IMG/VR virus record: IMGVR_UViG_2617270947_000016
From: a virus
Lineage: Duplodnaviria; Heunggongvirae; Uroviricota; Caudoviricetes
Reading direction: 5' to 3' (one strand)
DNA: 50,545 nt
In this document: one piece after another, positions 1 to 18,990 of the stretch
How the letters are laid out: every line of letters starts with the position of its first letter
Position numbering within the stretch: position 1 is the first letter of the stretch
Notes under the pieces: generated by a model
Told to the model about the DNA's origin: nothing
The model's input: the letters and a program-made list of their open reading frames with translations, nothing else
Databases searched by the model: none
Made by a program: the position numbers and the translations under genes

Positions 1-221
1 ACCCGCAAACCACACTTCCCTTTAAAACGCGTAACATACATTGCCTGCGTTTAACTTTCTTTGAACTCTTGCAGAAAAATGAGAATTCGTGAGTACGATC
101 ACTCAAAATCGCCTGGCAAAAATAAAATCACCCTATAGATGCACAAAAAACGGGCAAAACTACCTGGTTCGCAAAACTGCGTCTAAAGTTAAACCGGGAC
201 CTCGCGAGCAAGGGTGAGACG

Positions 222-399
222 ATGGCGCTTTACACAATTGGTGAAGTGGCGTTGCTTTGTGATATTAACCCTGTCACGTTACGCGCGTGACGCAACATTT
301 TTAAAAATCGACGAAGATCGTCCAGGAGCGCCGTTTTTCAAGGGTTGGATAGATGATTCGTTTACCATGTCGACGAACTTCGACGAATTTCGCCGATAA
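222..399 (+). pseudogene. Interrupted MerR-family regulator, MlrA-like N-terminus (MALYTIGEVALLCDINPVTLRA then stop; downstream similarity continues in another frame)
   Basis: ATG at 222 encodes a canonical MerR-type HTH N-terminus that I recall as matching MlrA, terminated after 23 codons; ORF 214-399 in a different frame retains weak MlrA-like residues (KGWIDD). Confidence 0.4.
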
Positions 400-448
400 A
401 AAGTGTCCCATACATGCCCCATTGATGCCCCATAAACAATATCAGGAA

Positions 449-477
449 TTGACACTGGTTATCCATACAGATAAAAA
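449..477 (+). promoter_or_regulatory. Sigma70-like promoter for dinI-like gene (-35 TTGACA, 17 bp spacer, -10 TAAAAA)
   Basis: Perfect -35 hexamer at 449-454 with A/T-rich -10 at 472-477, upstream of LexA box and RBS. Confidence 0.45.
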
Positions 478-483
478 TAACAC

Positions 484-499
484 CTGTACATAACTACAG
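484..499 (+). promoter_or_regulatory. LexA (SOS) box CTGT-N8-ACAG
   Basis: CTGTACATAACTACAG matches CTGT-N8-ACAG spacing, 15 bp upstream of dinI-like start. Confidence 0.6.
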
Positions 500-514
500 T
501 TACAGGAGGGTGTT

Positions 515-763
515 ATGCGTGTTGAGATCTGTATCGCTAAAGAAAAAATCACTAAAATGCCAAACGGTGCTGTGGATGCGTTAAAGGAAGAATTAACCCG
601 ACGCATCAGTAAACGTTATGACGATGTAGAGGTGATCGTAAAAGCCACCAGCAACGATGGCCTTTCTGTTACGCGCACCGCCGATAAAGATTCAGCTAAA
701 ACTTTTGTTCAGGAAACTCTGAAAGATACCTGGGAGTCTGCTGACGAGTGGTTTGTTCACTAA
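515..763 (+). CDS. DinI-family DNA damage-inducible protein
   Basis: 82 aa; C-terminal [15 protein letters not shown] resembles E. coli DinI; RBS AGGAGGG; LexA box upstream. Confidence 0.85.
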
Positions 764-830
764 TTAGCACGTAAAATCAGTAACGGCTGGAAATCATTCA
801 ATACTCGCACTATCGAAAGTTAACCAGCCA

Positions 831-869
831 GCCGCAGTATCCTATCATGACAAGTTACTGCGGCTTTTT
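831..869 (+). terminator. Rho-independent terminator after dinI-like gene
   Basis: 9 bp stem GCCGCAGTA/TACTGCGGC followed by TTTTT. Confidence 0.55.
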
Positions 870-880
870 ACTTTTTATAT

Positions 881-1168
881 TTAACAGATCAACATCCAGA
901 TCAGCAGACACGCCACCACCGGCACAGCAAAATCCATCAGGCTTGCCACATCCCACGCGCGCGGATCAAAACCGCCCCACCACGGCATGTTAATCCGCTT
1001 GCCATGCCCAAACATTTCAATCCAGCGATATTCTGCCTGGGTGTGTTCACGCGCAATGAAGAACGCACAACCGGCTATCGCCCCGTAAGCCCAGTTTCCG
1101 GTAAAAAGACCAACCAGTGTCTGCGCAGCCACAGCACAAAGTGCATGAAGGAAAGGTGTTATATCCAT
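881..1168 (-). CDS. Hypothetical small membrane protein (2-3 predicted TM segments)
   Basis: 95 aa hydrophobic ORF with strong RBS AAGGAGGA; last gene of tail-fibre operon. Confidence 0.5.
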   Translation of the reverse strand: MDITPFLHALCAVAAQTLVGLFTGNWAYGAIAGCAFFIAREHTQAEYRWIEMFGHGKRINMPWWGGFDPRAWDVASLMDFAVPVVACLLIWMLIC

Positions 1169-1178
1169 TACTCCTCCT

Positions 1179-1883
1179 TTATCCGATATCGCTTCGGGAA
1201 ACGGATAACAACTTTAATTCTGACTCAAGTTCATCAACTCTTTCAGTCAGCTTCTGGATATGGTGAATCAGTGGAACAACCAGACGTTCGTACATTACAC
1301 CTTCGGCAACAAGGCCATTGCTGGAAATAGCTTCCGGTGCATCATCTTCGTTAGCTGGTCGCCAGTGTACAAACTGAGGGGCAATTTCTCCTACTTCCTC
1401 GGCAATCAATCCGTAGAATCCCCAGTCACGCCTGTCATTTTCGCATTGCGACCTGTACCACACAGGGCGCATCCTGAAAATGAGATCGGCGTGCTCTGAA
1501 TCTATCGTCTCTACTGAATGTTTATAGCGGATAGACGATGTTGACCGCAGCACAGACGAAATTGCAGGGTCAGGATTAAGATAAAGATTTGCCGCCGCTG
1601 TAGTTGTGCCCAATCCCCATAAATAAAACGCTTCACGGCCAGTCAGCGGGTAAAAATCTCCGCCATAACGACCACTTTCCAGATCGTTCACTTCCACTTT
1701 GTTTTTCAGCTTATTATCCACTTCTGTTTTTGTGTATCTGGTACTGATATCCTGCTTTGCACTGTCCATATCAGTCTGAAGCGTTGATACTTTTACGTTA
1801 ATTGAGGAAATATCTTCCTTCGCTTTACTGACATCTCCCTTCAGCGTGGTGATGTCTCCCGGAATTACTGTCGATGTAGCCAT
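1179..1883 (-). CDS. Tail fibre-like protein with C-terminal intramolecular chaperone (peptidase S74-like) domain
   Basis: 234 aa; N-terminal coiled-coil; C-terminal S..R.K...FRMRPVWYR...GLIAEEVGEIAPQFV pattern typical of auto-cleaving fibre chaperone domains. Confidence 0.6.
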   Translation of the reverse strand: MATSTVIPGDITTLKGDVSKAKEDISSINVKVSTLQTDMDSAKQDISTRYTKTEVDNKLKNKVEVNDLESGRYGGDFYPLTGREAFYLWGLGTTTAAANLYLNPDPAISSVLRSTSSIRYKHSVETIDSEHADLIFRMRPVWYRSQCENDRRDWGFYGLIAEEVGEIAPQFVHWRPANEDDAPEAISSNGLVAEGVMYERLVVPLIHHIQKLTERVDELESELKLLSVSRSDIG

Positions 1884-1892
1884 TTTTCTGCC

Positions 1893-2174
1893 TCACATCC
1901 AGCCACGAAGTTGATGTTCAACTACAACCGCGTATTCATCGAATATTGACGATTTTTTTGCATCATTAATGATGCGCACGTTTACAAAATATCCGTCTTC
2001 CTTAACACATACCGGTTCGCCATCTTCAGTCAGTTCTCCGGTTTCTTTGTACACATTACCTATCACGTCAATAAGAATATCATCCTGCATCGACTCGTCA
2101 TCATAATAGCCAATGCTCTCCATAAAGGTCGAAAAGTCGGCCCTGTCTGCAAATTTGAGTGTTAAATCTTTCAT
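1893..2174 (-). CDS. Hypothetical acidic protein in tail-fibre-assembly position
   Basis: 93 aa ORF whose start overlaps the stf stop (ATGA); no lambda Tfa similarity recognised. Confidence 0.45.
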   Translation of the reverse strand: MKDLTLKFADRADFSTFMESIGYYDDESMQDDILIDVIGNVYKETGELTEDGEPVCVKEDGYFVNVRIINDAKKSSIFDEYAVVVEHQLRGWM

Positions 2175-4567
2175 TTAATACTCTCCCCCATTTGCGCATC
2201 AGTTAATTCTTTATTCCAGAGACGAAGATTTCTCAAATGGCCGAATAGATGACGAGTTCCCGATGTGGCTTGACCTCCAATTCGAATAAAGGTCCGTGTT
2301 TTTACGCCCGTCCACTCCGTTTTCATAGTTTTAGTAGCCTCACCGTTAGAAACTACTCGCTTAGTACCATCAGAATAAATATTAAAACCACCAATGAATT
2401 TTCGAACATCAGCTCGACCAGCAAACACACTAGAAACGTAAGTACTTGTCGACGCTTTATAAGTTTGCATATAAAGCTGACCGTAATATTTCTCAGTTGT
2501 GTTAAAAGCGTATGTAATTGACTCAATAGGTGGCACACCAGAAAAATCAAAAATACGCGGTGCTACATTAGGAGGAATATCGCCCCAATTTCTATTAACC
2601 TCGACAAGACACGTAAGCGGTCTATTATAGATATTATTTTCAGTTGGGATCGTCACCATATCACTGGAGCGGGTTGCGGGTGCAGTTGTCGTAATAACAA
2701 AAGATGAAGCACATCCGCCGTTTTCAAATTGTGGTGTTGCAAGGTAAATATAATCTCCCGCTTCAGTTATACCACCTTTTTTCGGCGCATACTGAATCAT
2801 TGCGCCAATTAAGGTTTCACCTTCAACAGCTTCTATAGTTGCCTCATAGAAAATCCCCCCTGTAACCGGATCTTTAGTTGCAGTAGCTGCTATTCTATTG
2901 GCTGCCCCGCCAGTTTTTTCTATTATCAGAGTTCCGAAAGTTAAATAAGCATCTCCTAAAAATGTATAAACCGACCCATCGTATTTTTCAAAACGCAAAC
3001 GACAACGAAGACCATCAGGAGCTTTAACCCTGCATGAAACAGTGCAATACTTATTATCGCCACTAACATCAATCCCCCGGGATGCACTGCATGTATGCAG
3101 ACTAAGTGCAGATGATTGTCCTGTCATATTATCTTTTGTTCGCATTTTGGCATATGAAAAACCAAATTCATCAACACCATTATTAGTTTTATCGATATTG
3201 CTGGTACTCGTCCATTCAGCGGGAGTATTGGATTTAACAAAATAGTTAGTGCGCTGTCCTTCAATCAATAAACCTTCTTTTTCAAATCGTGGCTCATCAA
3301 TTTTAGCAACACTAAATACGCCTGATTTATTGATATATGTGGCAGTTGATGCGCGTTTAAACTTAACAACCTTGTCGCCAGGCATCGTTATTTCATCATC
3401 ACCAATAACAATTTTTTTATATGACGGCGAAAAGCCCGTAATCATATCCAGTGAATCGTTAAACGGTATCCACACATCAGGCAGTGGCTGTAAGACATAT
3501 TTATACGGCTCTGCTGCCTGACTTGCATACTCTCTGGCTGCGTCTTCACTTGCTTTAGCTGCTGTCTGGCTTGCTGCCGATGCTTTCGCCGAGTTCGCCG
3601 CTGCAGTCTCGCTTGTCTTTGCATTGGTTTCACTGGTTTTTACTGCTTTTTGACTGTTGGCTGATGCAGTGGCAGAAGCAGCCGCCGCGCTTGCAGAACC
3701 AGCTGCAGCACTCTCGCTTTGGGCTGCTGCATCCTGACTGTTTTTCGCCGCAGTTTCGCTGGCTTTGGCATTCGTTTCGCTGGTCTTCGCTGCCGTCTGG
3801 CTGGACTTTGCGTTAGTTTCACTCGTCTTCGCAGCTTTCTGGCTGTTAGCCGCAGCAGTTGCTGATCCAGCTGCTGAAGTCGCAGAACCGGCTGCCGCGC
3901 TCTCGCTTTGGGCTGCTGCAACCTGGCTGTTTTTTGCCGCAGTTTCACTGGCTTTGGCATTCGTTTCGCTGGTTTTCGCTGCCGTCTGGCTGGACTTTGC
4001 GTTGGTTTCGCTCGTCTTTGCGGCTGTCTCGCTATTTTTCGCGTTGGTTTCTGATTTTTTGGCTGCTGTCGCGGAGTTTGCCGATGCAGTCTTTGAGGTC
4101 GCTGCCGCCTGTGCACTATTAGCTGCATTCGTTTCTGAGGTTTTCGCCGCGTTCTTCGATGATGCCGCTGCAGTTTCGGATTTCTTTGCCGCCGCTGCGC
4201 TCTGAGAGGCGGCTTCAGCGTTGCGTGCCGCTTCTTCCACCATTTCCTCAAAACGACGCAATGCCTCCGGCATGACATCATCTTCCGTCATGGCACCGAG
4301 AAAATCATTCAGCGTACCTGGTCTGGAGCCTTCATAGACGGTAATGGTCCCAACATGTGAAGGCGGAAAACCTTCAACCAGCAGGGTGACGCTGTACTGA
4401 CCATGCTCAACATCCATGCTGTAACGTCCGGCTTCATCCGGATTTTCAGAGGCCACCGTGTTCACCACCACCGTGCTGCTGGTTCGTCTGGCCTTCAGCA
4501 CAATGGTGCAGTTCTGTACTGGTTTTCCTGTGCCATCTTTAAGCACGCCAGAAATTTTTACTGTCAT
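2171..4567 (-). CDS. stf: Side tail fibre protein (lambda Stf-like N-terminus, Ala/Ser/Thr-rich repeat shaft, non-lambda C-terminal domain)
   Basis: 798 aa; N-terminus MTVKISGVLKDGTGKPVQNCTIVLKARR... closely matches lambda Stf; internal tandem repeats. Confidence 0.85.
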   Translation of the reverse strand: MTVKISGVLKDGTGKPVQNCTIVLKARRTSSTVVVNTVASENPDEAGRYSMDVEHGQYSVTLLVEGFPPSHVGTITVYEGSRPGTLNDFLGAMTEDDVMPEALRRFEEMVEEAARNAEAASQSAAAAKKSETAAASSKNAAKTSETNAANSAQAAATSKTASANSATAAKKSETNAKNSETAAKTSETNAKSSQTAAKTSETNAKASETAAKNSQVAAAQSESAAAGSATSAAGSATAAANSQKAAKTSETNAKSSQTAAKTSETNAKASETAAKNSQDAAAQSESAAAGSASAAAASATASANSQKAVKTSETNAKTSETAAANSAKASAASQTAAKASEDAAREYASQAAEPYKYVLQPLPDVWIPFNDSLDMITGFSPSYKKIVIGDDEITMPGDKVVKFKRASTATYINKSGVFSVAKIDEPRFEKEGLLIEGQRTNYFVKSNTPAEWTSTSNIDKTNNGVDEFGFSYAKMRTKDNMTGQSSALSLHTCSASRGIDVSGDNKYCTVSCRVKAPDGLRCRLRFEKYDGSVYTFLGDAYLTFGTLIIEKTGGAANRIAATATKDPVTGGIFYEATIEAVEGETLIGAMIQYAPKKGGITEAGDYIYLATPQFENGGCASSFVITTTAPATRSSDMVTIPTENNIYNRPLTCLVEVNRNWGDIPPNVAPRIFDFSGVPPIESITYAFNTTEKYYGQLYMQTYKASTSTYVSSVFAGRADVRKFIGGFNIYSDGTKRVVSNGEATKTMKTEWTGVKTRTFIRIGGQATSGTRHLFGHLRNLRLWNKELTDAQMGESIK
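3520..4010. repeat. Intragenic tandem repeat (about 189 bp unit, ~2.3 copies) inside stf
   Basis: Near-identical DNA units beginning ctctcgctttgggctgctgca at 3711 and 3899; protein repeat KTSETNAKSSQTAAKTSETNAKASETAAKNSQ. Confidence 0.8.
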
Positions 4568-4581
4568 ACTTTTCCACCAAT

Positions 4582-4613
4582 AAAAAAAGCCCGCAGCAGT
4601 GACGCCACGGGCT
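4582..4613 (-). terminator. Rho-independent terminator between lom and stf
   Basis: Stem AGCCCG/CGGGCT followed by T-run on minus strand. Confidence 0.5.
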
Positions 4614-4718
4614 TCAGGACAGTGTAACTTTACGTTTCCTCAAACGCAGTTCACCCCATAAGGTGGATGAACCTGCGTATCATAACAATATTTACAGAAG
4701 ATAAATCGGCGTCTGTTG

Positions 4719-5318
4719 TCAGAAACGGTATCCGATACCAACAATAAATGCATCCGTTCGCCAGTCGCCACTACCGGAACCTTCATAAGCAAGGTCAATG
4801 GTCACGGATTCGGTCGGGTTAAACTGCACGCCAGCCCCCCACGCCAGAGACGTGTTGCTGTGGCGACCGTCATCACTTCCGGTCAGCACATCGTGCGTTT
4901 TCCCCTTGTTGTCAGTTACGCGGAGATAATCCCCGGAGAAAGTCGACACACGGCTGTAAGCCATACCCGCCATCACATACGCGCTGAACCATTCATTCAC
5001 GCGTACAGACGGCCCCGCCATCACGCTGAACCAGCGGTTACGCACGGAATCTTCATGCCAGCGGGTATCGCTGTAGTGCGTTTTTTGCTCATCCTCAGCA
5101 TTGGCATAACTGAAGGACGTAATCAGCCCCAGCGCGTCCGTAAACTCATAACGGTATTTCACGTTAATCCCGTTCAGATTATCGCTGCCGGGAGCGTTCG
5201 TACGGGCATGAAGATACCCCGCGCTCAGTGTGGACTGATGTTCAGACGCCCATGCAGGCGCACCGGATACGGACAGACAGATGGCTGCGGACAAAATGGC
5301 TGCACAAACTTTACGCAT
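4719..5318 (-). CDS. lom: Lom outer membrane protein (Ail/Lom family)
   Basis: 199 aa; near-identical to lambda Lom throughout (MRKVCAAILSAAICLSVSGAPAWASEHQSTLSAGYLHA...). Confidence 0.92.
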   Translation of the reverse strand: MRKVCAAILSAAICLSVSGAPAWASEHQSTLSAGYLHARTNAPGSDNLNGINVKYRYEFTDALGLITSFSYANAEDEQKTHYSDTRWHEDSVRNRWFSVMAGPSVRVNEWFSAYVMAGMAYSRVSTFSGDYLRVTDNKGKTHDVLTGSDDGRHSNTSLAWGAGVQFNPTESVTIDLAYEGSGSGDWRTDAFIVGIGYRF

Positions 5319-5342
5319 AATTACCTCTCGCTTTTCTGCAAT

Positions 5343-5366
5343 AAAAAAGGCGCCATTTCTGGCGCC
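5343..5366 (-). terminator. Rho-independent terminator downstream of J
   Basis: GGCGCC-AGAAAT-GGCGCC hairpin followed by TTTTTT on minus strand. Confidence 0.55.
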
Positions 5367-5385
5367 CGTATATGGGTTATAAAAT

Positions 5386-8300
5386 TCAGCTGATACTGAT
5401 GCCTGCGGTGGCTTTCTTCATCACCACAACCAGCAAATCGCTGATACTTGCTGTGGGATACCAGTTATTCACCAGCCATGCTGATACCGAAAACTCCAGC
5501 GTCATGTGACCGTGACCGGCAGGCATATCAATAACGCCACTGTAAATCAGCGTATTATCCAGCGCGGTACGGTTATAAATTTCAGCACCGTTTTTCCGCA
5601 CTATCAGACGGCATGAGGAGTAAATATCAGTATGCTCTCTCTCATGCTTAGCGCCACTGAATGCCACCGCCGGAATAACAATTTGCCGGTCAAACGGCTG
5701 ATCGTCATAAACCCTGACGGTAATGGTCCCTGATGGCCACCGCTCCGGTGCACGGGAGTCACGGGGGAAAGCTTTGCCCACTGTTTTAACGAGATCGCCT
5801 TCAATCTGGTTGGCGGACAGTTTTCCCAGAACCCGACAGTTCTCGTTAATCGTGACGTTGTTGAGCGTCCCGGAGTTCGCATTCACGTTACCGCTGATAT
5901 CGGCATTTTTCGCCGTCAGCCGCCCGTCCGGTGTCAGGGAAAATGCCGGAGGATTACCGCCGCTGGTAATGGTGGGAGCCGTCAGGCGTTTCAGGAACAC
6001 GTCGTTCATGAATATCTGATCGCCCTGACCAACAAACATCGGCTTTGTGTTGCCATTCGCAGGATTAATCATCGCAATCCTGTCTGCCGCCAGCAGCACC
6101 TGACTCTGCATGCCGTCAGGGGTGTTTTCAATACCGGCACCAATACCCGCGATATAAAGGCGTCCGTCCTGCATCTGCTGCAGCTTCACAGCCCACATGC
6201 TGTTCAGGTTATTATTTGTATCAACCTGAACCTTCTGTATCTGCTGGATTGCCGCACTCTGGTCTTTCAGTTTCTTATTGACAGTCTGCGTGATTTCATT
6301 GCTGACATCCGTAATGGACGTCCTGATTTCAGCCAGGTCAGGCGCAAGCTGACCGTTATCAATCTGCGTCCACAGCTCCTGAGCCAGATGTGTTTTCCCT
6401 ATCTCTCCTTTGAAAAAATCCAGGTAACCTTCCGCATCATCGCTCGCCCGACCGACAGCCTCCACGAATGCCGATTTGCCAACAGTATTCACACTGCGGA
6501 TATAAAAATAATAATCATGGCCCGGTTTGATATTGATACTGGCAGCTATCCAGTACAGCGCCGAGCCAAGATAGCGGGCTGCGGTTTCAACCTGCCTGAT
6601 ATCCGCAATCCGCTTTTCCGAGAACCAGAACTCAAACTGTACCGTCGGGTCATAAACGGCAAGATGCGGCGTGGCGGTTATCTGAAAATAGCCCGGCGTC
6701 AGCTCAATAGTGACCGGTGCCGCAGGCGCGTTAATCCTGAAGGTGGTGGTCGCAGGTTCGCCCTGCTGGCCATAACTGTTAATCGCCCTGACCGTCAGGG
6801 TGTATTCCCCCAGCGGCAGGCCGCTGAAACGGTGCTCCGTGTCTGCGGTGATGGCGGTGGTCACCAGTCTGGCATCCGTTCCCTTACCACTGGTCAGGCG
6901 CAGACTGAAGCGCACACCCTTCACCACCCGCGGCGTGTCCCATTTCGCCTGCGCCAGATACTGGCCGTCAGCTGCGCTCACCTCCACCGTCAGGTGCTGC
7001 ACTGCCGGTGGGATGACGCTGTTCAGGGAGCCTGACTGCGGCTCAAAGCGGGCACCGTTATCCACGATGGCTTCTTTTTCCGGTACGTGCTGCACCGCCG
7101 TGATGGCAAAGGTGCCGTCCGTGTTTTCCCGGACGGAGACACAGCGGAACAGGCAACGGCGCAGTGACGGCAGGGAGAGTCCCCACACCCCGTATGTCTC
7201 CACACCATCAGGCAGGGTACTGACCTGTATCCGGTCCGGCGCGGGGTGTGCGGTGATGTCCACACTCACCGGCTTACCGCTGCCGTTAATCAGGTTCACC
7301 GCCGATGTACCTGTCTCCGGCAGGGTAACCTCACGGTCCAGCGTCAGGGTGCGGGTGGCAGCATCAATGGACAGGATACGTCCGCCGGTCATAGTCCCGG
7401 CATAGTCGTTATCACAGATTTCAATAATGTCACCCGGTGTGTGACGCAGCCCCTGTGACCCGAGCGTGAAGTCCACCGTCTGCGTTTCCAGCAGTTCGGT
7501 CTTTATCACCCACAGACCTGCACGGTGAGCCTGACCGCGGCTGGTACAGCCAAACGCATCCATCTTCAGCAGATTGCGTCCGTAGCGCAGTATGGCTTCC
7601 GGGTCTTCCACCAGTTCCGTGGAGGTCTGCCAGCCGTTCTGCGGGTCGGTGTAATTCACCTCCACCGCCGTGTGCCGGTCCTTCAGGGCACTGAAGCTGT
7701 AGCGGAATCCCACGCCGTTATCATCCACCACCACATCGCTGTTGGTGTACGGCCACACCACATCCGACGGGCGGTCCTGAACGAACGTCAGCGTCTGACC
7801 GTTCCATACCGGCATACAGCGCATCGCAGAGCAGAAATCACTGAGAACGTCCCACGCCTTACGCTGTTGTGCCAGGTACGCATTAAAGGTCATCCGCGGC
7901 TCGGTCCCCCCGAAACCATCCGGGACCGTCTGGTCGCAGTACTGCCCGATGGCATACAGCGCCCACTTGTCCACATCCGCCGCCCCCAGACGTTTTCCCA
8001 TGCCGTAGCGCGGGTGAGTCAGCATGTCCCACAGGCACCAGGCCGGGTTGTTGCTGTATGCCGGTTTCAGACTGCCGTCCCAGATACCACTGTACGTGCG
8101 TTTTTCCGGGTCATAGTTTGACGGCACCTGGATGATGCGACCGCGGATATGGTAGTTCACCGTCATCTGCTGGCCGCCGAACTGCTCCGCATCCACCTGC
8201 AGCCCCACAATGGCCGTGTTCGGGTAGCACTGTTTCACATCGATGATTTCGGTGTATGACGACCACAGCGTCTTATTCTGCAGTTGGTCCGTGGTGCTGT

Positions 8301-8859
8301 CCGCCGTCTCCCTGACCATCCGGATGTTAAAGGGCCGGGGAGGCAGATTATCCAGAATCACCGAGGCCAGGAACTGTGAGGTGGTCTTGCCGTTAATGGT
8401 GACGTCCTTTTCCGTCACCCAGTTACCGTTACGCTGTAACTGAATCAGCAGACGGACGGATGCCGGGTTACGGTCACCCTTTGAGGTGGTCTCCACCAGT
8501 GACTGCACCCCGAAGGTAACCCGCAGGCGGTCAATGTTCGCGGACGTAATGGTGCGCGTCACCGGTTTTGCCTTCGTCACTTCCACGCCCAGTCCGGTTT
8601 CAGCTCCGGAGGACTCAAAGCCTTCCGGTGGTGTCTGCTCCTGCTCCCCGGCACGCCAGACCGCGGTCACACCGTGTATCACGGGATTACCGTCCGTGTC
8701 CGTCAGCGGGGTTTTGTTCACCAGGATACTCTGCAGTCCCTTCACCGGGCCTTCTATCGGTCCCTCACCAATCGCATCAATCACGCTCATCATCTGCGTG
8801 GATTTGAGATTATCCTTCGCCTCACGAGGCGTGTGTGCCTTACCGCCACCTTTTCCCAT
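5386..8859 (-). CDS. J: Tail tip / host specificity protein J
   Basis: 1157 aa; N-terminus [22 protein letters not shown] and many internal blocks match lambda J. Confidence 0.95.
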
Positions 8860-8965
8860 ACAGCCTTCCCCTGAATAAATTAACCGCCACTTGCCATTCC
8901 GTACAGAAGTCGGATATCCTTCGCCCGAAAAGCATGAAACACATTTCTGCCATGCTAAAGAGAAA

Positions 8966-8989
8966 CCCCGGTATCAGCAGATACCGGGG
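8966..8989. terminator. Strong hairpin (10 bp stem, 4 nt loop) with U-rich flanks on both strands; possible bidirectional terminator
   Basis: CCCCGGTATC-AGCA-GATACCGGGG; T-rich sequence downstream on both strands. Confidence 0.45.
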
Positions 8990-9064
8990 TTTTCTTTCAT
9001 GCCCACCGATAATCCTGTTGGTTAAAACCGGTAATGGCATAAAAATTCTGAATATCTTCACATT

Positions 9065-9092
9065 TTCACAAACTGACTGTGGCGCGTATAAT
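9065..9092 (+). promoter_or_regulatory. Near-consensus sigma70 promoter (TTCACA-16 bp-TATAAT) antisense to tail operon
   Basis: -35 at 9065-9070 and perfect -10 TATAAT at 9087-9092 in the expanded I-J spacer. Confidence 0.45.
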
Positions 9093-9098
9093 TTCTCT

Positions 9099-9196
9099 GC
9101 GTTAATTTTTTTGTCGTGATATAAGAATAATTCCTTACACTTAATCTTCGTAACTCTCCCGCAGTTCCTGTCCGCGATCACTGCGGGATTTTTTTA
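9099..9196 (+). ncRNA. Candidate ~98 nt small RNA (promoter to intrinsic terminator), unassigned
   Basis: Predicted start just downstream of TATAAT; ends at hairpin TCCCGCAG...CTGCGGGA (9157-9188) followed by TTTTTTT; no ORF with RBS. Confidence 0.35.
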
Positions 9197-9202
9197 TTCT
9201 TT

Positions 9203-9883
9203 TTACCCCTGCCGCCCGATAACCACGACCTTTCCGCCCCCGCCTTCATCACGGGTGCTGATGTCCTGGGATATACGGCGGGAGCCAACCAGCATTTCCC
9301 CGTAAGGCACCGGCATCGGGTTCCCCTGGGCAATCATGTTATCCAGCGAGGAAAAGTACGTGTTCTGTCTGCCGTTATCCGTTGCGCGGTAATCCGGTGT
9401 TTTTGCCTTCGGGGCCAGCATCTGGGCCACACCGCCCAGAATCATGCTGGCTCCAAGTGAAAACAGCATCGTGGTGGCAGAAAAACCACCGGCACTCAGG
9501 GCTGTACCCCATAACGCCATCGAGCCTCCGGCCGTGAAGAAAGAGCCCACGATGGCTGCCGCCCCCAGCACAATCTGCAGTCCACCCTTTCCGGCCCCGG
9601 CCAGTCGCGGCACAATGTGGATGACCGTTCCCTCACCCAGCTGTTCGTGAAGACGGGCATACACCGCCTCCGGTGCCGTGTCATCACCGGCAATACGTAT
9701 CTGGTACCAGCCTTCGTTCATCTGACGGCGAAAGCCCGGCATCTGCATCGACAGGGCGCGAATGGCTTCCGCTGCCGTGTTCACATACAGGCTGAGGCGG
9801 CGGCCAAATCGTTGCAAATCCCCGTGAAGGCAGATGCGTGCCAGTGGCGGTGACGCCAGACAGAATGCGTTCGTCGTTGCCAT
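9203..9883 (-). CDS. I: Tail tip assembly protein I
   Basis: 226 aa; ARICLHGDLQRFGRR..., GQFSSLDNM-type blocks match lambda I; overlaps K by ~100 bp as in lambda. Confidence 0.9.
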   Translation of the reverse strand: MATTNAFCLASPPLARICLHGDLQRFGRRLSLYVNTAAEAIRALSMQMPGFRRQMNEGWYQIRIAGDDTAPEAVYARLHEQLGEGTVIHIVPRLAGAGKGGLQIVLGAAAIVGSFFTAGGSMALWGTALSAGGFSATTMLFSLGASMILGGVAQMLAPKAKTPDYRATDNGRQNTYFSSLDNMIAQGNPMPVPYGEMLVGSRRISQDISTRDEGGGGKVVVIGRQG

Positions 9884-10524
9884 TTTTCGGAATACCTCTC
9901 CCGTTTACTCAGTTGTTCAGGCAGATGGTGAAGCAGCTCACCGTTGCCGCAGTAAATGGCGGCATGGTTCGGTACCGAAGCACCAAAGCAGCACAGCAGA
10001 ATATCGCCCGCCTGTGCAGAGGACAGGGGCACCCGGTAAAAGCCGGTGACCGCCATATTGTCCAGGTAAAGGTTCTGACCGTTGCGCCACCAGTCATCCT
10101 CGCGATGAAAATCCGGCATTTCAGTCCCCGCCAGATGATAAGCATCCCGGAACAGCGTGTAACAGTCCGTCACCCCGTGCTCAAAGCGCCGTCCTGTCAG
10201 ATGTGGCACACAGCGGAATTTGTGAATGTCACCCCGGCAGACCAGCCACCAGGGCAGTGCGCTTTTTATCTGCAGCCGCCGGTCAGCCTCGCTCAGCCAG
10301 GGCAGCCCACCGGGATGACTGTGGACCAGTGCCACAATCTCCCCCTGCATCTCTGCCCGCAGCCAGTCTTCCGGTGCGATACGAAAATACGCCTCCGGCT
10401 CTGCGGAAATATTCACACAAGGGATATACCGCTCCCCCTCCGGCGTGCTTATCACGAAGCCGCACGACTCCGCAGGCGCACACCGCCGGGCATGTGCCAG
10501 AATCGCTGATTCAGTCTGTGTCAT
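9781..10524 (-). CDS. K: Tail tip assembly protein K
   Basis: Internal start MTQTESAILAHARRCAPAESCGF immediately after L stop matches lambda K N-terminus; the longer 334 aa ORF extension overlaps L. Confidence 0.85.
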   Translation of the reverse strand: MTQTESAILAHARRCAPAESCGFVISTPEGERYIPCVNISAEPEAYFRIAPEDWLRAEMQGEIVALVHSHPGGLPWLSEADRRLQIKSALPWWLVCRGDIHKFRCVPHLTGRRFEHGVTDCYTLFRDAYHLAGTEMPDFHREDDWWRNGQNLYLDNMAVTGFYRVPLSSAQAGDILLCCFGASVPNHAAIYCGNGELLHHLPEQLSKRERYSEKWQRRTHSVWRHRHWHASAFTGICNDLAAASACM

Positions 10525-10534
10525 AAACCGGGAT

Positions 10535-11233
10535 TTACTGCGAAAGTTTATTAATGGAAAGGAAACCGCCAAAATTGCCGACATTCCTGCGCAGTTCACA
10601 CCCGCGCATGCACTTGCTGCATCTGTCCTTACGGATATCCGTGGTGGGGTTGTCGAACTCATCCGCCACCGCAGGACCGTTATACCCGCATTCATCTCCC
10701 CGGTAATCCCACATACAGGTGTTCGCCAGCATGATGCGACCGGGAAACAGCGCCCCGTCCGTCTCGGTCGGTGTAGCCAGCACAAACGAGGCCGTCATGG
10801 CTGTCAGCTGCGACATCTGCTCCACCACCCAGCGGTCACTCAGCTCCTGCTCCGGGTCCGCCTCCGGATTGCCCGCAACGAAATTCACCGCATCCAGAAA
10901 ACGGGCATACACCCGGCGGCGGACCACCGTGGCCCCCACCAGACTCTGCAGGTCTTCCGCCATCCCGGTGACCAGACCGAACAGATTGGACACCGTCAGC
11001 GACGGTCTGGCACTGCTGCCCCGGCCGTTCATCTCAAAGCCGCTGCCGTCAATCGGGTATGCCTCATACTTACGCCCCTGCCAGGTGACCGGCTCCCCTT
11101 TTTCATTCAGCTCATTACAGAAAAAATACCGCTCACCACCCTGTACCGTCAGGTCGATTTCCCAGAGTACCACCCGCGGTGACTGCTCTGACTTAACCGA
11201 CTCGTTCAGACTTTCTTCGCGAATATCCTGCAT
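10535..11233 (-). CDS. L: Tail tip protein L
   Basis: 232 aa; MQDIREESLNE...GGFLSINKLSQ matches lambda L end to end. Confidence 0.92.
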   Translation of the reverse strand: MQDIREESLNESVKSEQSPRVVLWEIDLTVQGGERYFFCNELNEKGEPVTWQGRKYEAYPIDGSGFEMNGRGSSARPSLTVSNLFGLVTGMAEDLQSLVGATVVRRRVYARFLDAVNFVAGNPEADPEQELSDRWVVEQMSQLTAMTASFVLATPTETDGALFPGRIMLANTCMWDYRGDECGYNGPAVADEFDNPTTDIRKDRCSKCMRGCELRRNVGNFGGFLSINKLSQ

Positions 11234-11562
11234 CAGTTCACCACCTGCTTAAACTCCGCGCTGAACTCAACGCGCAACATCCCGACCCGCGCAGACCACC
11301 CGGCACAGGTCACCTTTATCTGCCGGTATGCATAGGGTGGCTTCCACAAAAATGCCTTCCAGCCACCGTGCTCTGCCAGGAACGCTTCCAGATGCCGGGC
11401 CTCCTCCCGGGTCACGGAAAGCGTCACCCTGTATGTTTTCAGGTCAGCATTCAGCCCTGCCGCCATACGCTGTGAGTACCCGTCACCAAAACGCACTTCA
11501 CGCACCGATGGCTGCGAGTTCACCTCCATATCCGGCTTCACTTTCCAGCGAAAGGTTTTCAT
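11233..11562 (-). CDS. M: Tail tip protein M
   Basis: 109 aa, same length and position as lambda M. Confidence 0.9.
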   Translation of the reverse strand: MKTFRWKVKPDMEVNSQPSVREVRFGDGYSQRMAAGLNADLKTYRVTLSVTREEARHLEAFLAEHGGWKAFLWKPPYAYRQIKVTCAGWSARVGMLRVEFSAEFKQVVN

Positions 11563-14132
11563 CCACCGCTCCCTGATAACATACCGCCATCACGCAACTG
11601 CAGCCGGAGTTCATCCTGTGCCCCCTTGCGGGCCATCTCATACACCGCTTTCATCAGCTGCGGCCCTGCCCGCCCGTTGGGGCCGTCGTTCTGAATCACC
11701 ACGTGATTGTTCTGATTAAAATTAATGCCTTCCGCCCGCCGCATCTGCGCCGGACTTCCGGCACCGCCGACATAACCACCTTCCGCATAGCCCCGCATCA
11801 GGCGGTACAGATTGCCGACACCAATCCGGCTGGTCGCCTCCTTCGTGAAGACAAACTCCCCGCGATGAACAATCCCCGCAGGTTCATATTTACCCCCCGT
11901 CCCCGTAAATCCCCCGGTCGCGAAATGGAAGTTCGCCGCCGCAGCCTGAATGGCTGTACCGCCTGACGCGGATGCGCCGCCACCAACAGCCCCGCCAATG
12001 GCGCTGCCGATACTCCCGACTATCCCCACCATCGCCTGCTTCAGAAAAATCTCTGTCAGCATGGACAGCACAGAACGGGTGAAACCACGCCAGTTCTGTT
12101 CGCTGCCGGTCAGCATCGCTGCCATATTCTGTGCAATACCGTCAAAGGTCTGCGTGGCCGCGTTTTTAACCTGCGAAAAACTGTCCGTCGCACTTTCCGC
12201 CCACTCGCCCCAGCCGGACTTCATCCCGGCCATCCAGCTTCCACGAAGCTGCTCCTCCGCAGACCAGGTGTTCTTCAGTGCAGATGTGGCCTTCGCCAGC
12301 GCAGCCGGATTATCACCGTACACCTCACGAAGGCGCTGCTCTTCCGACTCCCGCTGCGCCTGACGGTCGGTGAGTCCGCGGGCTTTTGCGCTGATTGCCG
12401 CCTGCTTCGCGCTCTGCTGCTGTTCAAACCGCGCCGCCTGCTGTGCCAGCTCATTCAGCCGTTTCTGGTGTTCTATCTTGTCGCCCAGCTCAGCCAGCTG
12501 GCGTTTGTACTCCAGCGTTTCTTTCTCATGGGCCAGCAGGGATTTTTCCTGCTCAGATAACTGCCGTTTCGTGGCGGCCTCTTTCAGGACCACATACTGA
12601 TTTTCCGCTTCCCATAAATCCCGGCGCTGCTGGCTGATTTTCTCATTCACACCGCTGTGTTTTTCCAGCGTCCTGAGCTCGGTTTCAAGCGCCAGCATGG
12701 CTGCATGCGCCCGGTCTTCCTGGCGCTCACCGGCAGACACCTTCACACCGGACGGCTTTTTCTGCGTCGACTCATAATCCTTTTTTGCCGACGCCATCAG
12801 CGTGTTGTAATCCGCCTGCAGGATTTTCCCGTCTTTCAGGGCCTTATTCAGCTCTTCCTGCCGGGCGGTATATTTCTCCAGTGGCGTCAGCAGGCGCTCA
12901 TACGCCTTCTGCGCCTCTCCGGTATACTTCAGCTGTGACGACTCACGCTCAGCCCTGTCCCTTGCCGCCAGTTCACCGGCTTTTTCCATATCCGACTGCA
13001 GCGTTACCGCTGCCAGACCCAGACGGGCATTTTCCCGGTCATCCCATGCGCCCTGAAGGTTGGCACGAAAAGAGGCGGTTTTTCCCCGGCGCTGGCTCCG
13101 GCTCTGGTACCACTGCCATTTTTTATCCGCCTCATCAAATGCCTTCTGTGCACTGGCGAGCATATCCGCTGAGGACTCAGGACGACCGATATCCAGAATG
13201 GCATCCCACATCGATTTGAATGCCTTCCCTGTTTTATCCGCCCAGGTCTCCAGTGTTCCCATGTTTTCTTTCAGGCGACGGGTCTGCTCATCAAAGCCTT
13301 TCGTGGCGATATCGTTCGCCGCCTGCAATGCCCCGGCCTCGTCTCCGGAACGCTGCAGCTGTGCAACATACGCAATCTGCTCTGCCGTCACGTTACGGAA
13401 CTGGCGCGCCATCGCCATCAGTCCCGACGTCGGGTCAGTGGTCAGCTTCCCGAAGGCTTCAGCGACTTTATCCACCTCCACACCGGATGCAGACGCAAAA
13501 CGCGCGACACTCTGGTTGATGGCATCAAACTGTTCACCACCACGCACACCGGCATTCACCAGGGCTGCCAGTGACTCTCTCGCCTGGTTAAACGTCAGCC
13601 CTGCTGCCTGCCCGGCTCTTGAGAGAGTCAGCATACGATCGGCAGTCAGTCCGGACTGATTACCGGAAAGAACCAGGGTTTTATTAAACGCTGAAAGCGT
13701 GGAATCTCCCTGGTACCAGGCGTACACCAGCGCACCTGTCGCCACCGCCAACGAGGTGACCCCGACCATCGGCAGGGTGATCGCACCGGCAAGCCCCCTG
13801 AACATGGGGATCATCCCGCCGAAGGAGTCCTTCACCTGACCGCCCTGTTGCAGCAGGATCAGCCAGGGATTCTGACCACCGGCAAGCTGCGTGGCGATAT
13901 CCGTAAACTGTGCGGGCAGGGTTCGCATGGCCGCTTTATACTGCCCGACGGAAATCCCGGCTTTTTGTGCAGCCAGCGCCTGGCGGCTCAGGCCCTGTTC
14001 AACAGCACTGGCGGTTTTTCTGGCGTCGGTATCCAGACCTGAAAAATGACGCCTTACCCGGCTCATCTGCTCATCGAAACGGACAGCATCCAGACTCAGG
14101 TCAATAACAAGATCACCAACCGGCTGGGACAT
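11559..14132 (-). CDS. H: Tail tape measure protein H
   Basis: 857 aa; MSQPVGDLVIDLSLDAVRFDEQMSRVRRHF... matches lambda H. Confidence 0.95.
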   Translation of the reverse strand: MSQPVGDLVIDLSLDAVRFDEQMSRVRRHFSGLDTDARKTASAVEQGLSRQALAAQKAGISVGQYKAAMRTLPAQFTDIATQLAGGQNPWLILLQQGGQVKDSFGGMIPMFRGLAGAITLPMVGVTSLAVATGALVYAWYQGDSTLSAFNKTLVLSGNQSGLTADRMLTLSRAGQAAGLTFNQARESLAALVNAGVRGGEQFDAINQSVARFASASGVEVDKVAEAFGKLTTDPTSGLMAMARQFRNVTAEQIAYVAQLQRSGDEAGALQAANDIATKGFDEQTRRLKENMGTLETWADKTGKAFKSMWDAILDIGRPESSADMLASAQKAFDEADKKWQWYQSRSQRRGKTASFRANLQGAWDDRENARLGLAAVTLQSDMEKAGELAARDRAERESSQLKYTGEAQKAYERLLTPLEKYTARQEELNKALKDGKILQADYNTLMASAKKDYESTQKKPSGVKVSAGERQEDRAHAAMLALETELRTLEKHSGVNEKISQQRRDLWEAENQYVVLKEAATKRQLSEQEKSLLAHEKETLEYKRQLAELGDKIEHQKRLNELAQQAARFEQQQSAKQAAISAKARGLTDRQAQRESEEQRLREVYGDNPAALAKATSALKNTWSAEEQLRGSWMAGMKSGWGEWAESATDSFSQVKNAATQTFDGIAQNMAAMLTGSEQNWRGFTRSVLSMLTEIFLKQAMVGIVGSIGSAIGGAVGGGASASGGTAIQAAAANFHFATGGFTGTGGKYEPAGIVHRGEFVFTKEATSRIGVGNLYRLMRGYAEGGYVGGAGSPAQMRRAEGINFNQNNHVVIQNDGPNGRAGPQLMKAVYEMARKGAQDELRLQLRDGGMLSGSGG

Positions 14133-14984
14133 ATCTCACACCTCCCGGAATCCCCGCTGAAGCCATCATTAATGCGGCTTCATCCACCATGACATCCGCC
14201 ACATCCGCAGACGATAAAATATCGCGCCCTCCGTCCCCACCGAACCGGACGCCTCCGGCAAGTCCTGCCGCTTTCTGCATCAGCATTTTGTCCTCATCCG
14301 GCCTCTCCACCTGCTCTTCCTCATGCCGGGGGACAAGCAGACTGAAATCAGAGGGATGCATATCCGGATCGCAAAAAAACAGGCTGAGTACAGCGTACGT
14401 CAGCCCGGAAAAATGCATATCCAGCTGGGTATCCTGAAAATAATGCGTGCGGTAAAAACGGTGCCAGTCGGCATATTCGGTGGATGTCATCCCGGCAAGC
14501 ATGGCGCGCCAGTCGGGTCTCCCCATCTCACGCGCCAGTCTGAGGGCAAAGTTCAGCTCGCCGTCGAAGACTTTCCCGCAGAAAAATCATCATCAGTCAG
14601 CGTGTTATTTTTCGCCACTTCAGTAATATCAGTATCCGGACGAACAGCTTCGATCATCCCGGACAGGCACAACACCACGTCTTCCGCCCGGGCAATGGCA
14701 TCGGCAGGCCAGGTGGTGAGCACTTCCTGCTCTATCTTCATCACGGCCTCATTCATTGACGGTGACTGCGTTTTCTGTGGATGGTTATGCCACAGGGACA
14801 TCGCCACCAGAAACGCGCCGGTTCTGACGAGATCTTCCACGCTTACCTGCAGGTTGCCGCTGGATTCTGCCTGTTCTGCACGCCGTTTCAGGAGGGCAAG
14901 ATGCTCGATACGCTGCAGCGCAGACAATTCGGAAAGCGTGACAGACACACCGTTATATTCAAATTGTTCTGTTTTCAGGAACAT
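14113..14984 (-). CDS. T: G-T tail assembly chaperone fusion (made by programmed -1 frameshift from G into T frame)
   Basis: T-frame ORF 14113-14526 continues in -1 frame from slippery heptamer GGGAAAG near 3' end of G, as in lambda. Confidence 0.75.
14553..14984 (-). CDS. G: Tail assembly chaperone G
   Basis: 143 aa; MFLKTEQFEYNGVSVTLSELSALQRIEHLAL... matches lambda G. Confidence 0.9.
   Translation of the reverse strand: MFLKTEQFEYNGVSVTLSELSALQRIEHLALLKRRAEQAESSGNLQVSVEDLVRTGAFLVAMSLWHNHPQKTQSPSMNEAVMKIEQEVLTTWPADAIARAEDVVLCLSGMIEAVRPDTDITEVAKNNTLTDDDFSAGKSSTAS
14571..14577 (-). promoter_or_regulatory. Programmed -1 ribosomal frameshift slippery site G GGA AAG
   Basis: Heptamer GGGAAAG on minus strand, 16-22 nt upstream of G stop; -1 shift reads into T frame. 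Confidence 0.75.
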
Positions 14985-15002
14985 CGCTTATCTCTCAGCT
15001 CT

Positions 15003-15749
15003 TTAGCCACCCGGCACATTATTAACGGTAATTTCAGCCACCGCAGCAAACTGACCATTACCGGAAATCACAGGGATGCTGACTTTTCCATCCTTAACCC
15101 CCGTCACAGTAATCGTCATATCTTTCACGCTAATGGTGGCTTTTGATGGATCGGCGGAAATCGCCCTGAATGTCTTATCCGTTGCATTTTCCGGTTCCAC
15201 AGTAACGGTCAGGGTGGTTGTTTTCCCTTTTTCAACCGTACCTGTCGGCGTTACCTTAATCGCAGTGACCGGCGTAATTTTGCTGCGTTCTTCCGCTACA
15301 GAAGGTTTACCCACGTTAGTGACTTTCACCGTGCGGGTGATCACTTCTTTCGCCGTCACGGCCTTACCGATACTGCTGCCCCAGCCACGAAACACATCCA
15401 CCGTGCCATTCGGAAAACGGATTTTATAGGCCCGGACATCGCCGCTTTCAAACCAGCCTATAAGCCCTTTCTGACCTTCCTCTCCCGGTTTCCAGGCCAG
15501 CGTAAAACTGGTATCACCTGCAGATTTCTGCCCCTGCCCGGTCGCGGTCCAGTCTGCGTCTTCATCATCCAGGTAGTTATCATCGTAGGATTCTGCCGTC
15601 ATCTCGCCCGGCGTCAGATCCTTCACCTTAGCCAGTCGCTGCCAGTCAGCGTCTGACAACGGGTTTGCATAAGCATCACCCTTGCCGTTGTAAACCCACA
15701 GAGTGGTACCGGCACCTTTTACCGGCTCCAGGGGATTTGGTGTTGCCAT
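15003..15749 (-). CDS. V: Major tail protein V
   Basis: 248 aa; N-terminal and C-terminal Ig-like regions match lambda V. Confidence 0.92.
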
Positions 15750-15756
15750 ATCGTCC

Positions 15757-16152
15757 TCACATCTCGTATGTAATGGAATAAGTCAGATCCGCAGAGCTCC
15801 ATAACGCCATATCGTCATCACGACGATACTCATAGCCCTGCGTAACCATCGTGGTAATCAGTTCTGCCAGTGCCGGGATCGCAGTCATCGCCGGATAAAT
15901 CCGGCTTTCCATCCACGAATCCAGCTCTGAATCCGGTACCTGTGCCGGTAAAAACACCTCAATATGCAGTGTGGCCCGCCAGGTATCTGCATCCAGCTCT
16001 TCACCGGTATACTCTGCATCCGTCAGATAAACCGCGATCGCAGGAAAATCCTCTTCGTCAAAAACAACGGGGCGACCATCAAACAGCGTCGCCCCGTGTT
16101 CATGCTGCTCGAGTGCATCCAGCACTGCGGCACGAATGTCAGTGTGTTTCAT
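15757..16152 (-). CDS. U: Tail terminator protein U
   Basis: 131 aa, lambda U length and position. Confidence 0.9.
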
Positions 16153-16724
16153 CGTTTTATCGCAATCCTCAGTTGTTGTTTCAGCGCGTATGCCAGTTCT
16201 TTAGGCAGGCGTTCACGCCGGATACGGTCAACATTCTCATCAAATGCCTGTTTCAGTGGGGCCGCCATCGGGATTTTCACCACCTGAATGGGAAGGCGAT
16301 TACGCTTTTTCCTTCCCTTGTCGTCATTGCCCTCCTCATATCTGGCCTGGGGAAGACGTTGCATAACATGCCAGCGCCCATTATTTAATCGCTGGATAAA
16401 TGCCCGCTGATAACGATGCTGACCGGCTTTAAGTATGCTGTTCGGACGACGCCCCAGCATTCTGATCCCCAGCTTAATCACAGGGAGATCACCGCGGTTA
16501 ACGATAATTCTGGCATTCGGATTTCTGACCGTCGCCCGTTTCAGTCTGGACCGTTCCTTTACCAGTTTCCGTCTCACCCTGGTTTCCCGGGCAACCTGTG
16601 ACGAAGACTGATTAATCGCCATTGTGGCCACGCGGTTAATGGTCATTGCAGAAGCAGCCGGAATGGCGTTTTTACGAACCCGGCTCAGATTGTCAATCGC
16701 CTGATCAAGCCCTTTTATCGCCAT
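16149..16724 (-). CDS. Z: Tail completion protein Z
   Basis: 191 aa, lambda Z position. Confidence 0.9.
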   Translation of the reverse strand: MAIKGLDQAIDNLSRVRKNAIPAASAMTINRVATMAINQSSSQVARETRVRRKLVKERSRLKRATVRNPNARIIVNRGDLPVIKLGIRMLGRRPNSILKAGQHRYQRAFIQRLNNGRWHVMQRLPQARYEEGNDDKGRKKRNRLPIQVVKIPMAAPLKQAFDENVDRIRRERLPKELAYALKQQLRIAIKR

Positions 16725-16739
16725 AATTTCACCCTGCGT

Positions 16740-17093
16740 TTATCGTCGCCGGTTAACTGCGGGTGGTTGACCACGGTTGAGCCAGAGATAACAGCTGCCC
16801 CCGTCATCCGGAGAAACACGATCCACCCAGAATGTCTCACCATTAATGGTCAGCGTGTCACCACGCCGCACGGCACGAACCGTATCCGTCCGCACAAATA
16901 ATGACGGGCTGCTTCCTTCAATACGGACCCCGCCACCGGCAAACCCCAGCGACTCCGGATCGTCAAAAACCCCCTGAACTTCGCTGCCACACTGTGCCCC
17001 CGAGGTGAACTGCGCACAGAGCCCCATCACTTCAACGATCGTACTGTCTACCCCGGCGAGGGCAGCATCAAAGGCATTCTGAAAATCACGCAT
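16740..17093 (-). CDS. FII: Head-tail joining protein FII
   Basis: 117 aa; C-terminal ...FWVDRVSPDDGGSCYLWL...PPAVNRRR matches lambda FII. Confidence 0.9.
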   Translation of the reverse strand: MRDFQNAFDAALAGVDSTIVEVMGLCAQFTSGAQCGSEVQGVFDDPESLGFAGGGVRIEGSSPSLFVRTDTVRAVRRGDTLTINGETFWVDRVSPDDGGSCYLWLNRGQPPAVNRRR

Positions 17094-17469
17094 ATTCAGC
17101 CGTTCCGTGCTGTATCATGGCCGTTGCCAGTGATGATGGCACCAGAACACGCATACCCCGTAACGCCAGCTCAACGGGACGACCTGTCTCCGGGCAATAC
17201 CCCATTACTTGCAGGCACTTCCGTACCCGGACGGCTTTAACATCATCCGGAGCATCCGTGTTGTTCAACTGCTCACCATCGTCTGTGTGATTTTGATCAG
17301 CCCCGCTCTCATCAGAGTGCATAATGCCCTCCGGGGAAACAGCAAGCTCCTCTTCCCACTCAGACACACGTTGCGCAATATCCGCAGCACTCCCCGACAT
17401 ATCCGCCTCGCGCCCCAGCAGGCCAGCCAGTTGACGAAGACGATTCAGATTTTCTTCTTTTGTTGCCAT
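17086..17469 (-). CDS. FI: DNA packaging protein FI
   Basis: Start chosen at MATKEENLNRL with AGGAGG RBS; the longer ORF start at 17517 runs through a hairpin. Confidence 0.75.
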   Translation of the reverse strand: MATKEENLNRLRQLAGLLGREADMSGSAADIAQRVSEWEEELAVSPEGIMHSDESGADQNHTDDGEQLNNTDAPDDVKAVRVRKCLQVMGYCPETGRPVELALRGMRVLVPSSLATAMIQHGTAEYA

Positions 17470-17483
17470 CTCAGCCTCCTGTG

Positions 17484-17512
17484 AAAAAAGACACGGGGGC
17501 ATTTCGCCCCCG
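17484..17512 (-). terminator. Terminator-like hairpin immediately downstream of major capsid gene
   Basis: 7 bp GC stem (CGGGGGC/GCCCCCG) followed within 4 nt by T6 on minus strand. Confidence 0.4.
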
Positions 17513-17520
17513 CTCACGGA

Positions 17521-18954: not shown

Positions 18955-18990
18955 ATTGTTAAAACCTCGTATTGATGTTCAGCACTGACT

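Follow-up and report, generated by a model that had tools for sequence, protein, structure and literature searches.

It has already been documented that the mlrA (yehV) gene of E. coli is a target of lambdoid prophages, and both the site and the consequences of its occupation are credited to Shaikh & Tarr 2003 and to Uhlich et al. 2013 and 2016 (cited in PMC5931665). The closest described system is VT1-Sakai (Sp15, the Stx1 prophage of O157:H7 Sakai, with CP-933V as its EDL933 counterpart); the left end of its record, AP000400.1, carries annotations for yehV' and an 'attachment site' of 20 bp, together with a promoter, a LexA SOS box and a gene for DinI. Insertion in mlrA has been linked in other strains to the loss of curli and biofilm: the DNA-binding motif of MlrA is lost, so that MlrA-dependent activation of csgD does not take place and curli and biofilm are reduced, and the phenotype is restored by mlrA in trans or by excision of the prophage (PMC3874044, PMC5931665). 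Curli are also governed by rpoS and other loci (PMC3874044). Distal mlrA transcripts go up on prophage induction and truncated proteins fail to restore biofilm; recombinant distal mlrA fragments give back some Congo-red affinity without an increase in csgD, and their binding to DNA is unlikely; cured derivatives are seldom recovered, and the related Sp15 does excise (PMC5931665). An initial annotation of the DNA analysed here had described mlrA as an established site of lambdoid prophages, with impaired curli and biofilm as the reported outcome, in agreement with these records.

The DNA is a stretch of 50,545 nucleotides (hereafter, the window). Its positions 222-400 almost certainly hold the tail/dinI-side junction (attR) of a lambdoid prophage of ~50.3 kb, integrated by its own Int into the attB of mlrA (yehV). 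The site, the 20-bp core and the curli/biofilm defect are all on record, and the junction as such is already known and ordinary.

On the host side, the coding sequence of btsS (yehU) terminates a single base ahead of window position 1 (L001, L002), in native synteny, and the mlrA promoter and 5' leader are still joined to a stub of 22 codons. The ORF at 222-290 (ATG GCG CTT TAC … CGC GCG TGA) translates to MALYTIGEVALLCDINPVTLRA followed by a stop, and its residues are identical, 22 out of 22, to the N-terminus of K-12 MlrA (243 aa; L002 1722-2453), with a tblastn E value of 1e-11 for MlrA against the first 1 kb. The stop TGA (288-290) takes its TG from the att core and its A from phage DNA. 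Lysogen 266917_2 has the stub tagged as a partial CDS, 'missing C-terminus', and the VT1-Sakai record names it yehV'.

A megablast search with window 1-400 found a match in every one of 5,426 complete E. coli genomes. In the listed genomes with an uninterrupted mlrA, window 1-289 aligned at 99.3-100% identity and the match ended at 289 every time; compared base by base with K-12, there was one synonymous change before 289 (AAC vs AAT, Asn16), and from base 290 on the identity in an ungapped alignment was at random level. The break between host and phage is thus exactly at 289/290. Places spanning at least 80% of window 1-400, and thus reaching well into the phage arm, were present in 475 of the 5,426 genomes (about 9%). 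The initial annotation, which had read the ORF from 222 as the N-terminus of MlrA followed by a stop and had put the end of host DNA near 270-300, was therefore right on both points. It had also described MlrA-like similarity continuing out of frame past the stop, and this does not hold: in a tblastn search of window 1-1000 (word size 2, E up to 1000), the best alignment to MlrA beyond codon 22 reached E = 1.2, that is, chance level (frame +1, 265-372, 25% identity), amid equally poor chance matches.

In intact MlrA, Pfam recognises MerR_1 (residues 4-72), MlrA_helical (81-155) and MlrA_C (162-238). The ORF in the window, of 22 residues only, is devoid of the full MerR helix-turn-helix and of the helical and C-terminal domains; the insertion cuts the MerR_1 helix-turn-helix, of which the displaced ORF keeps only profile positions 16-68. 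The features of the junction and of the prophage are collected in Table 1.

Table 1. Features of the mlrA junction, the integration module and the prophage body (positions in the window).
Feature	Position	Strand	Basis
btsS(yehU)-mlrA intergenic host DNA, with mlrA promoter and 5' leader	1..221	+	identity to uninterrupted E. coli genomes
mlrA' stub, codons 1-22, then TGA	222..290	+	ORF listing, sequence, 22/22 identity to K-12 MlrA
att core, 20 bp, CCTGTCACGTTACGCGCGTG	270..289	+	aligned to misc_recomb 8051..8070 'attachment site of VT1-Sakai', AP000400.1
Inverted repeat GTCACG-N7-CGTGAC across the junction	273..291	.	read from sequence; 8-pair hairpin in scan
Phage arm (tail/dinI-proximal arm of attP)	290..514	+	matches VT1-Sakai over window 200-530 bar 1 base
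Lambdoid prophage body, 50,294 bp between cores, last 38 nt past the window	290..50545	.	module annotation
Candidate arm-type Int repeats: AAAGTGTCCCAT, then ATGCCCCAT twice (414-422, 425-433)	400..435	+	repeat count
Promoter-like site	449-478	+	promoter scan 10/12; VT1-Sakai 'putative promoter', identical there, mapped to 449-477
LexA SOS box with CTGT-N8-ACAG	482-501	+	VT1-Sakai 'putative SOS box', identical there
dinI-like gene, 82 aa, first prophage gene inside the junction	515..763	+	Pfam DinI E = 1.2e-19
nanS-p-like esterase	28633-30486		module annotation
tRNAs (three)	30976-31225	-	tRNA search
Q	34140-34835		module annotation
Excisionase (xis)	48971..49225	+	Pfam DUF1233 'putative excisionase' E = 2e-29; xisR/xis in lysogens and VT1-Sakai
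Tyrosine integrase, 428 aa	49259..50545	+	Pfam Arm-DNA-bind_2 E = 2.1e-24, Phage_integrase E = 5.4e-18
int-proximal candidate arm-type repeat (AAAGTGTCCCAT..ATGCCCCATAA), in int 3' end	50508..50532	+	repeat search

The attB takes up codons 17-23 of E. coli mlrA, and the core is the identity common to attB and attP, with strand exchange within it; it extends to 21 bp (269-289) with the AAC allele of the host. In lambda, the identity between attP and attB is 15 bp, against 20 bp here. Lambda resembles the window in having an Int of two domains, the N-terminal one arm-binding, in the position of xis just upstream of int, in an int 3' end that abuts attP, and in arm motifs on both sides of a core with inverted sites around a 7-bp spacer; it differs in core and target, the site in the window being inside a coding region and not between gal and bio. 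By analogy with lambda, GTCACG and CGTGAC are candidate core-type Int sites flanking a putative 7-bp overlap, TTACGCG (279-285). The nonamer ATGCCCCAT occurs three times in the 50.5-kb window, always beside att (414, 425 and 50522), where 0.65 copies are expected by chance and none of 100 shuffled sequences reached three; the 12-mer AAAGTGTCCCAT stands at 400 and 50508, ahead of this repeat on both sides. These repeats are plausible arm-type sites for the N-terminal domain of Int.

The junction hairpin with its T-run (272-292) was also considered as a terminator insulating the prophage from mlrA transcription, and could not be distinguished from chance: its fold (-9.8 kcal/mol, z = -1.56) was equalled in 13 of 200 shuffles, and the scan returned 3 terminator-like sites against 1.0 ± 1.1 expected. 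As an analogy with the lambda att site suggests, the inverted repeat would be better explained by core-type Int sites than by a terminator. Further into the phage arm, the promoter-like site and the SOS box lie upstream of the dinI-like gene, whose counterpart bears a DinI-like label in the lysogens and in VT1-Sakai.

At the other end of the window the stop codon of int is the last codon, so that the integrase does lie, as the initial annotation had it, opposite to the junction with its 3' end pointing outward. Its domain search showed the lambda-type heterobivalent make-up, an N-terminal arm-binding domain (PF12167, residues 7-70) and a C-terminal tyrosine recombinase catalytic domain (PF00589, residues 203-396), with RHT, GH and VY motifs in the C-terminal part. 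It is identical to the Int of VT1-Sakai at 422 of 428 residues (98.6%); its best sequence match in the PDB is the Tn1549 Int 6EN0 (E = 1.5e-7), and its divergence from lambda Int is too great for the latter to figure among the matches.

The core is present once in the window, with no second copy even at 3 mismatches, because the window closes with the stop codon of int, 38 nt ahead of the point at which the second core begins in related genomes. Assemblies with near-identical ends, found by look-up of two window proteins, supply what lies beyond. In related genomes (L003, L004, L006, L010-L017) a spacer of 38 nt follows int and the second core starts from the 39th base, so that in these genomes the matching core looked for past the integrase is indeed there, as a direct repeat, with the remainder of mlrA behind it; every related lysogen that was compared has it. 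The order int, 38 nt, core, rest of mlrA, yohO, yehW is found in 266917_2, O111:H2 strain 12A, VT1-Sakai and eight more assemblies, and the displaced mlrA is in native synteny with yohO, yehW and yehX. In 266917_2 and O111:H2 strain 12A the last 300 bases before the int stop are the same as in the window; three further assemblies (L012, L013 and L017) are 100% identical to the last 8,817 bases of the window and continue with the second core and the remaining 221 mlrA codons, and another (L022) has the first 4,383 bases of the window unchanged. The best complete-genome match to window 1-1200 is at 99.1%. In JHDN01000050.1 and OZ039230.1, which were compared with the two window ends and showed 0-3 mismatches there, both ends are on one contig and 50,314 bp separate the two cores, the distance expected from the window (50,256 for window 290-50545, plus 38, plus 20). 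Beyond 50545 we would therefore expect AATAAAAACTTGCAAAATCAATTAGTTTACCCTTAATC, the core CCTGTCACGTTACGCGCGTG, and then GCAGAGGCGTTACGG (mlrA codon 23 onward); for this exact molecule, the second core and the displaced mlrA are predicted from assemblies identical or nearly identical at the window ends.

The 'complete genome' record of phage vB_EcoS_phi330 (PV189401.1; L009 1685-1725) has two tandem copies of the 20-bp core between int and dinI. It was probably made by joining the ends of a prophage, each with its att copy, and not from virion DNA; because of the tandem core, it is only weak as an independent proof of a contiguous attP.

The RefSeq/PGAP annotation of lysogens (L003 4267-4968 and L004 4267-4968) lists the displaced 3' part of mlrA as a non-pseudo 'HTH-type transcriptional regulator MlrA' of 233 aa. 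Since the displaced gene is annotated as an ordinary MlrA, screens for gene presence or absence would miss the disruption.

As for the naming of the junctions, the initial annotation had labelled the one described here attL. Both the lambda convention and the names of published primers make the tail/dinI-side junction the right junction (attR), and attL is the int-proximal one, just outside the window. In Table 2 of PMC3874044, where the yehVRJ and yehVLJ primers are credited to its reference 20, primer A ('yehVRJfor', right junction) matches the window exactly at 244-263, and primer F ('yehVLJfor', left junction) is exact within int, at 50074-50093. The predicted products, 824 bp for F/B (L017) and 340 bp for A/B in K-12 with intact mlrA, have the sizes reported in PMC3874044. 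Primer E, as printed there, is one base off VT1-Sakai, in which it lies at the 702-bp position. In the window no site for primer E was found within 3 mismatches, because similarity to VT1-Sakai does not go beyond window 835 and the primer sits in the missing YkgJ-like gene (window 836-1170 compared with VT1-Sakai L007 617-910). The right-junction PCR (A/E, 702 bp) would thus fail and the left-junction PCR (F/B, 824 bp) would succeed, a pattern that could be misread as a truncated prophage.

The prophage appears complete. From the junction inward, the DinI-like gene is followed by tail-fibre and fibre-assembly genes, Lom, J and the tape measure; then come the major head protein, protease/scaffold, portal, large terminase, lysis genes and a nanS-p-like sialate esterase; then three tRNAs, a DNA methylase, Q, and DnaC-like and DnaB-like replication genes; and finally Rha/Ash genes, an S24/HTH (cI-like) repressor, Ea22-like genes, excisionase and tyrosine integrase. 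Full-length ORFs were found for the terminase (656 aa), portal (530 aa), protease (501 aa), major head protein (342 aa), tape measure (857 aa) and J (1157 aa), as well as for Q, the repressor, xis and int, and no IS elements were seen in the module annotation of the window.

Other observations concern single modules of the prophage. On the minus strand, window 2171-4567 encodes a side tail fibre of 798 aa with a long Ala/Ser/Thr-rich region and repeats of the type SETNAK-S/N-SQTAAKTSETNAKASETAAKNSQ; adjoining it is a 234-aa ORF (1179-1883) with an endosialidase-chaperone (Peptidase_S74) domain. Window 41094-41282 (minus strand), within ORF 40476-41339, has Rfam matches to the C4 antisense RNA (81 bits) and to isrK (62 bits), located at the 5' end of an ORF with Ash and Rha domains; a second Rha-domain ORF adjoins (41448-42155). 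This arrangement looks like a P1/P7-style, antisense-controlled antirepressor module placed in a lambdoid immunity region. Window 30709-31225 (minus strand) contains tRNA-Met(cat), tRNA-Arg(tcg) and tRNA-Arg(tct) together with a match to the STnc100 sRNA (139 bits), and this stretch, between methylase/Q and the nanS-p-like esterase, is in the position of stx in Stx phages.

In comparison with VT1-Sakai, the window has the same attB, the same 20-bp core, only one mismatch in the 331 bases of window 200-530, and in common an SOS-box-controlled dinI-like gene beside att, the order xis-int-att and the 38-nt spacer from int stop to core. By contrast, the alignment is limited to 16.2 kb of the 50.5 kb (about 32% of the window): the end with att and dinI, J-lom together with the proximal tail genes, parts of the lysis region, and the end with Ea22, xis and int. 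The homology halts just short of stx1B, and the window is without stx1A/B: between Q/tRNAs and the nanS-p-like gene neither these genes nor any stx-sized ORFs were present, the gap from the tRNA-Arg (30976) to the start of the esterase gene (30486) being of 490 nt only and filled by STnc100. At the stx1 position of VT1-Sakai, the window carries the three tRNAs, STnc100 and the methylase. It also differs in its head genes, in its replication genes, which are of DnaB/DnaC type and not O/P, and in its repressor region, which has Rha/Ash genes along with C4 and isrK RNAs; it is free of IS629 and has an intact J. Judged from its sequence, the prophage is a stx-free mosaic relative of the Stx1 phages, with att/int/xis and dinI/tail-tip modules of VT1-Sakai type and different head, replication and immunity modules.

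The attachment region is common to other phages. BP-4795, YYZ-2008, JLK-2012 (O55:H7 DEC5E), Stx2a_1447 and Stx2a_WGPS2 have one or both att arms 98-100% identical to the reconstructed attP; for all five, the likeness is read from the att arms. Stx2a_1447 and Stx2a_WGPS2, whose records are named Stx-converting, have stx, unlike the window. In lambdoid, often Stx2, prophages integrated in yecE, the dinI-proximal arm is 95-97% identical from the first base past the core and the core is related (CCCGTCACTTTAACTGCGTG vs CCTGTCACGTTACGCGCGTG), whereas the host target is yecE and the int-proximal arm has no match. Such a case is E. coli NJS001 at its yecD/yecE locus (L008 2990-3140), and LC5678xx phage records are others. 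These similarities suggest that the mlrA and yecE types may be two sister integration modules with one common arm. NJS001 has no match to window 1-268, and its btsS-mlrA region may be deleted.

How the element and the split gene should be interpreted depends on several alternatives. With an identical att junction, an Int of 98.6% identity and dinI, J, lom and xis modules in common, it could be taken for a Stx1-converting prophage (Sp15/VT1-Sakai or CP-933V), the usual occupant of mlrA in O157:H7; we give this practically no probability, in view of the absence of stx, of the methylase, tRNAs and STnc100 that make up the region from Q to the esterase, of the replication type, and of a homology confined to 16.2 kb that ends short of stx1B. 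Just as little credit can be given to the idea that the 22-codon ORF is a stray duplicate, with an intact mlrA elsewhere and no gene disrupted. Window 1-400 has a median of one place per complete E. coli genome and exactly one in the complete lysogen 266917_2, so that the same search located no intact mlrA elsewhere in this lysogen; moreover, the stub stands beside btsS in native synteny, and the missing part of mlrA is right behind int, with yohO, yehW and yehX following as in the native locus. A fixed, defective remnant, which could not excise and would make the disruption of mlrA permanent instead of reversible, is unlikely, with a small but appreciable probability: many lambdoid prophages of E. 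coli are defective and cured derivatives are rarely recovered (PMC5931665), and, on the other side, all modules look full-length, with no IS element, both cores are intact in the assemblies identical or nearly identical at the window ends, and the related Sp15 excises (PMC5931665).

A different possibility is that the displaced mlrA is functional, with an in-frame N-terminus supplied by the phage (…ISLPLIPVTLRAW…), and that regulation is rewired and not lost. The reading frame is open beginning 3 nt after the stop of int, RefSeq lists the 233-aa product as a non-pseudo MlrA in lysogens, and the rise of distal transcripts on induction, with some Congo-red affinity restored by distal fragments, points in the same direction (PMC5931665). 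Nevertheless, the 233-aa ORF begins with an ATT in phage DNA, with no in-frame ATG, GTG or TTG in the phage part; it is without the first 15 positions of the MerR_1 helix-turn-helix profile; the native promoter is 50 kb away; and the fragments rescued neither biofilm nor csgD and are unlikely to bind DNA (PMC5931665). We consider this alternative very improbable.

The explanation that we prefer remains site-specific integration at the mlrA attB. The recombination joined attP to attB within the 20-bp identity and left codons 1-22 of mlrA behind the native promoter; codons 23-243 would have been moved by 50.3 kb, directly behind int. In analogy with lambda Int, the integrase would bind the inverted core sites GTCACG/CGTGAC around the 7-bp overlap, as well as the ATGCCCCAT repeats in the two flanking arms, and excision would be directed by Xis.

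Further to this, the stx-free prophage could act as a reversible mlrA switch ('active lysogeny'), in which SOS-triggered or spontaneous excision would bring curli and biofilm back in a subpopulation, or read-through from int could give a regulatory MlrA fragment with a replaced N-terminus. Each of the two has already been proposed, and in part tested, with the Stx1 prophage of strain PA20 (PMC5931665, its references 35 and 38). We regard them as decidedly unlikely here; if true, they would extend that work to a non-Stx phage.

The junction marks the strain as a mlrA-disrupted lysogen, probably with a weak csgD-dependent biofilm, and exposes an annotation trap, in that a displaced gene truncated in its helix-turn-helix is listed by RefSeq as an ordinary MlrA. 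A stx-negative mosaic phage occupying the site of the Stx1 phages matters, in addition, for insertion-site typing.
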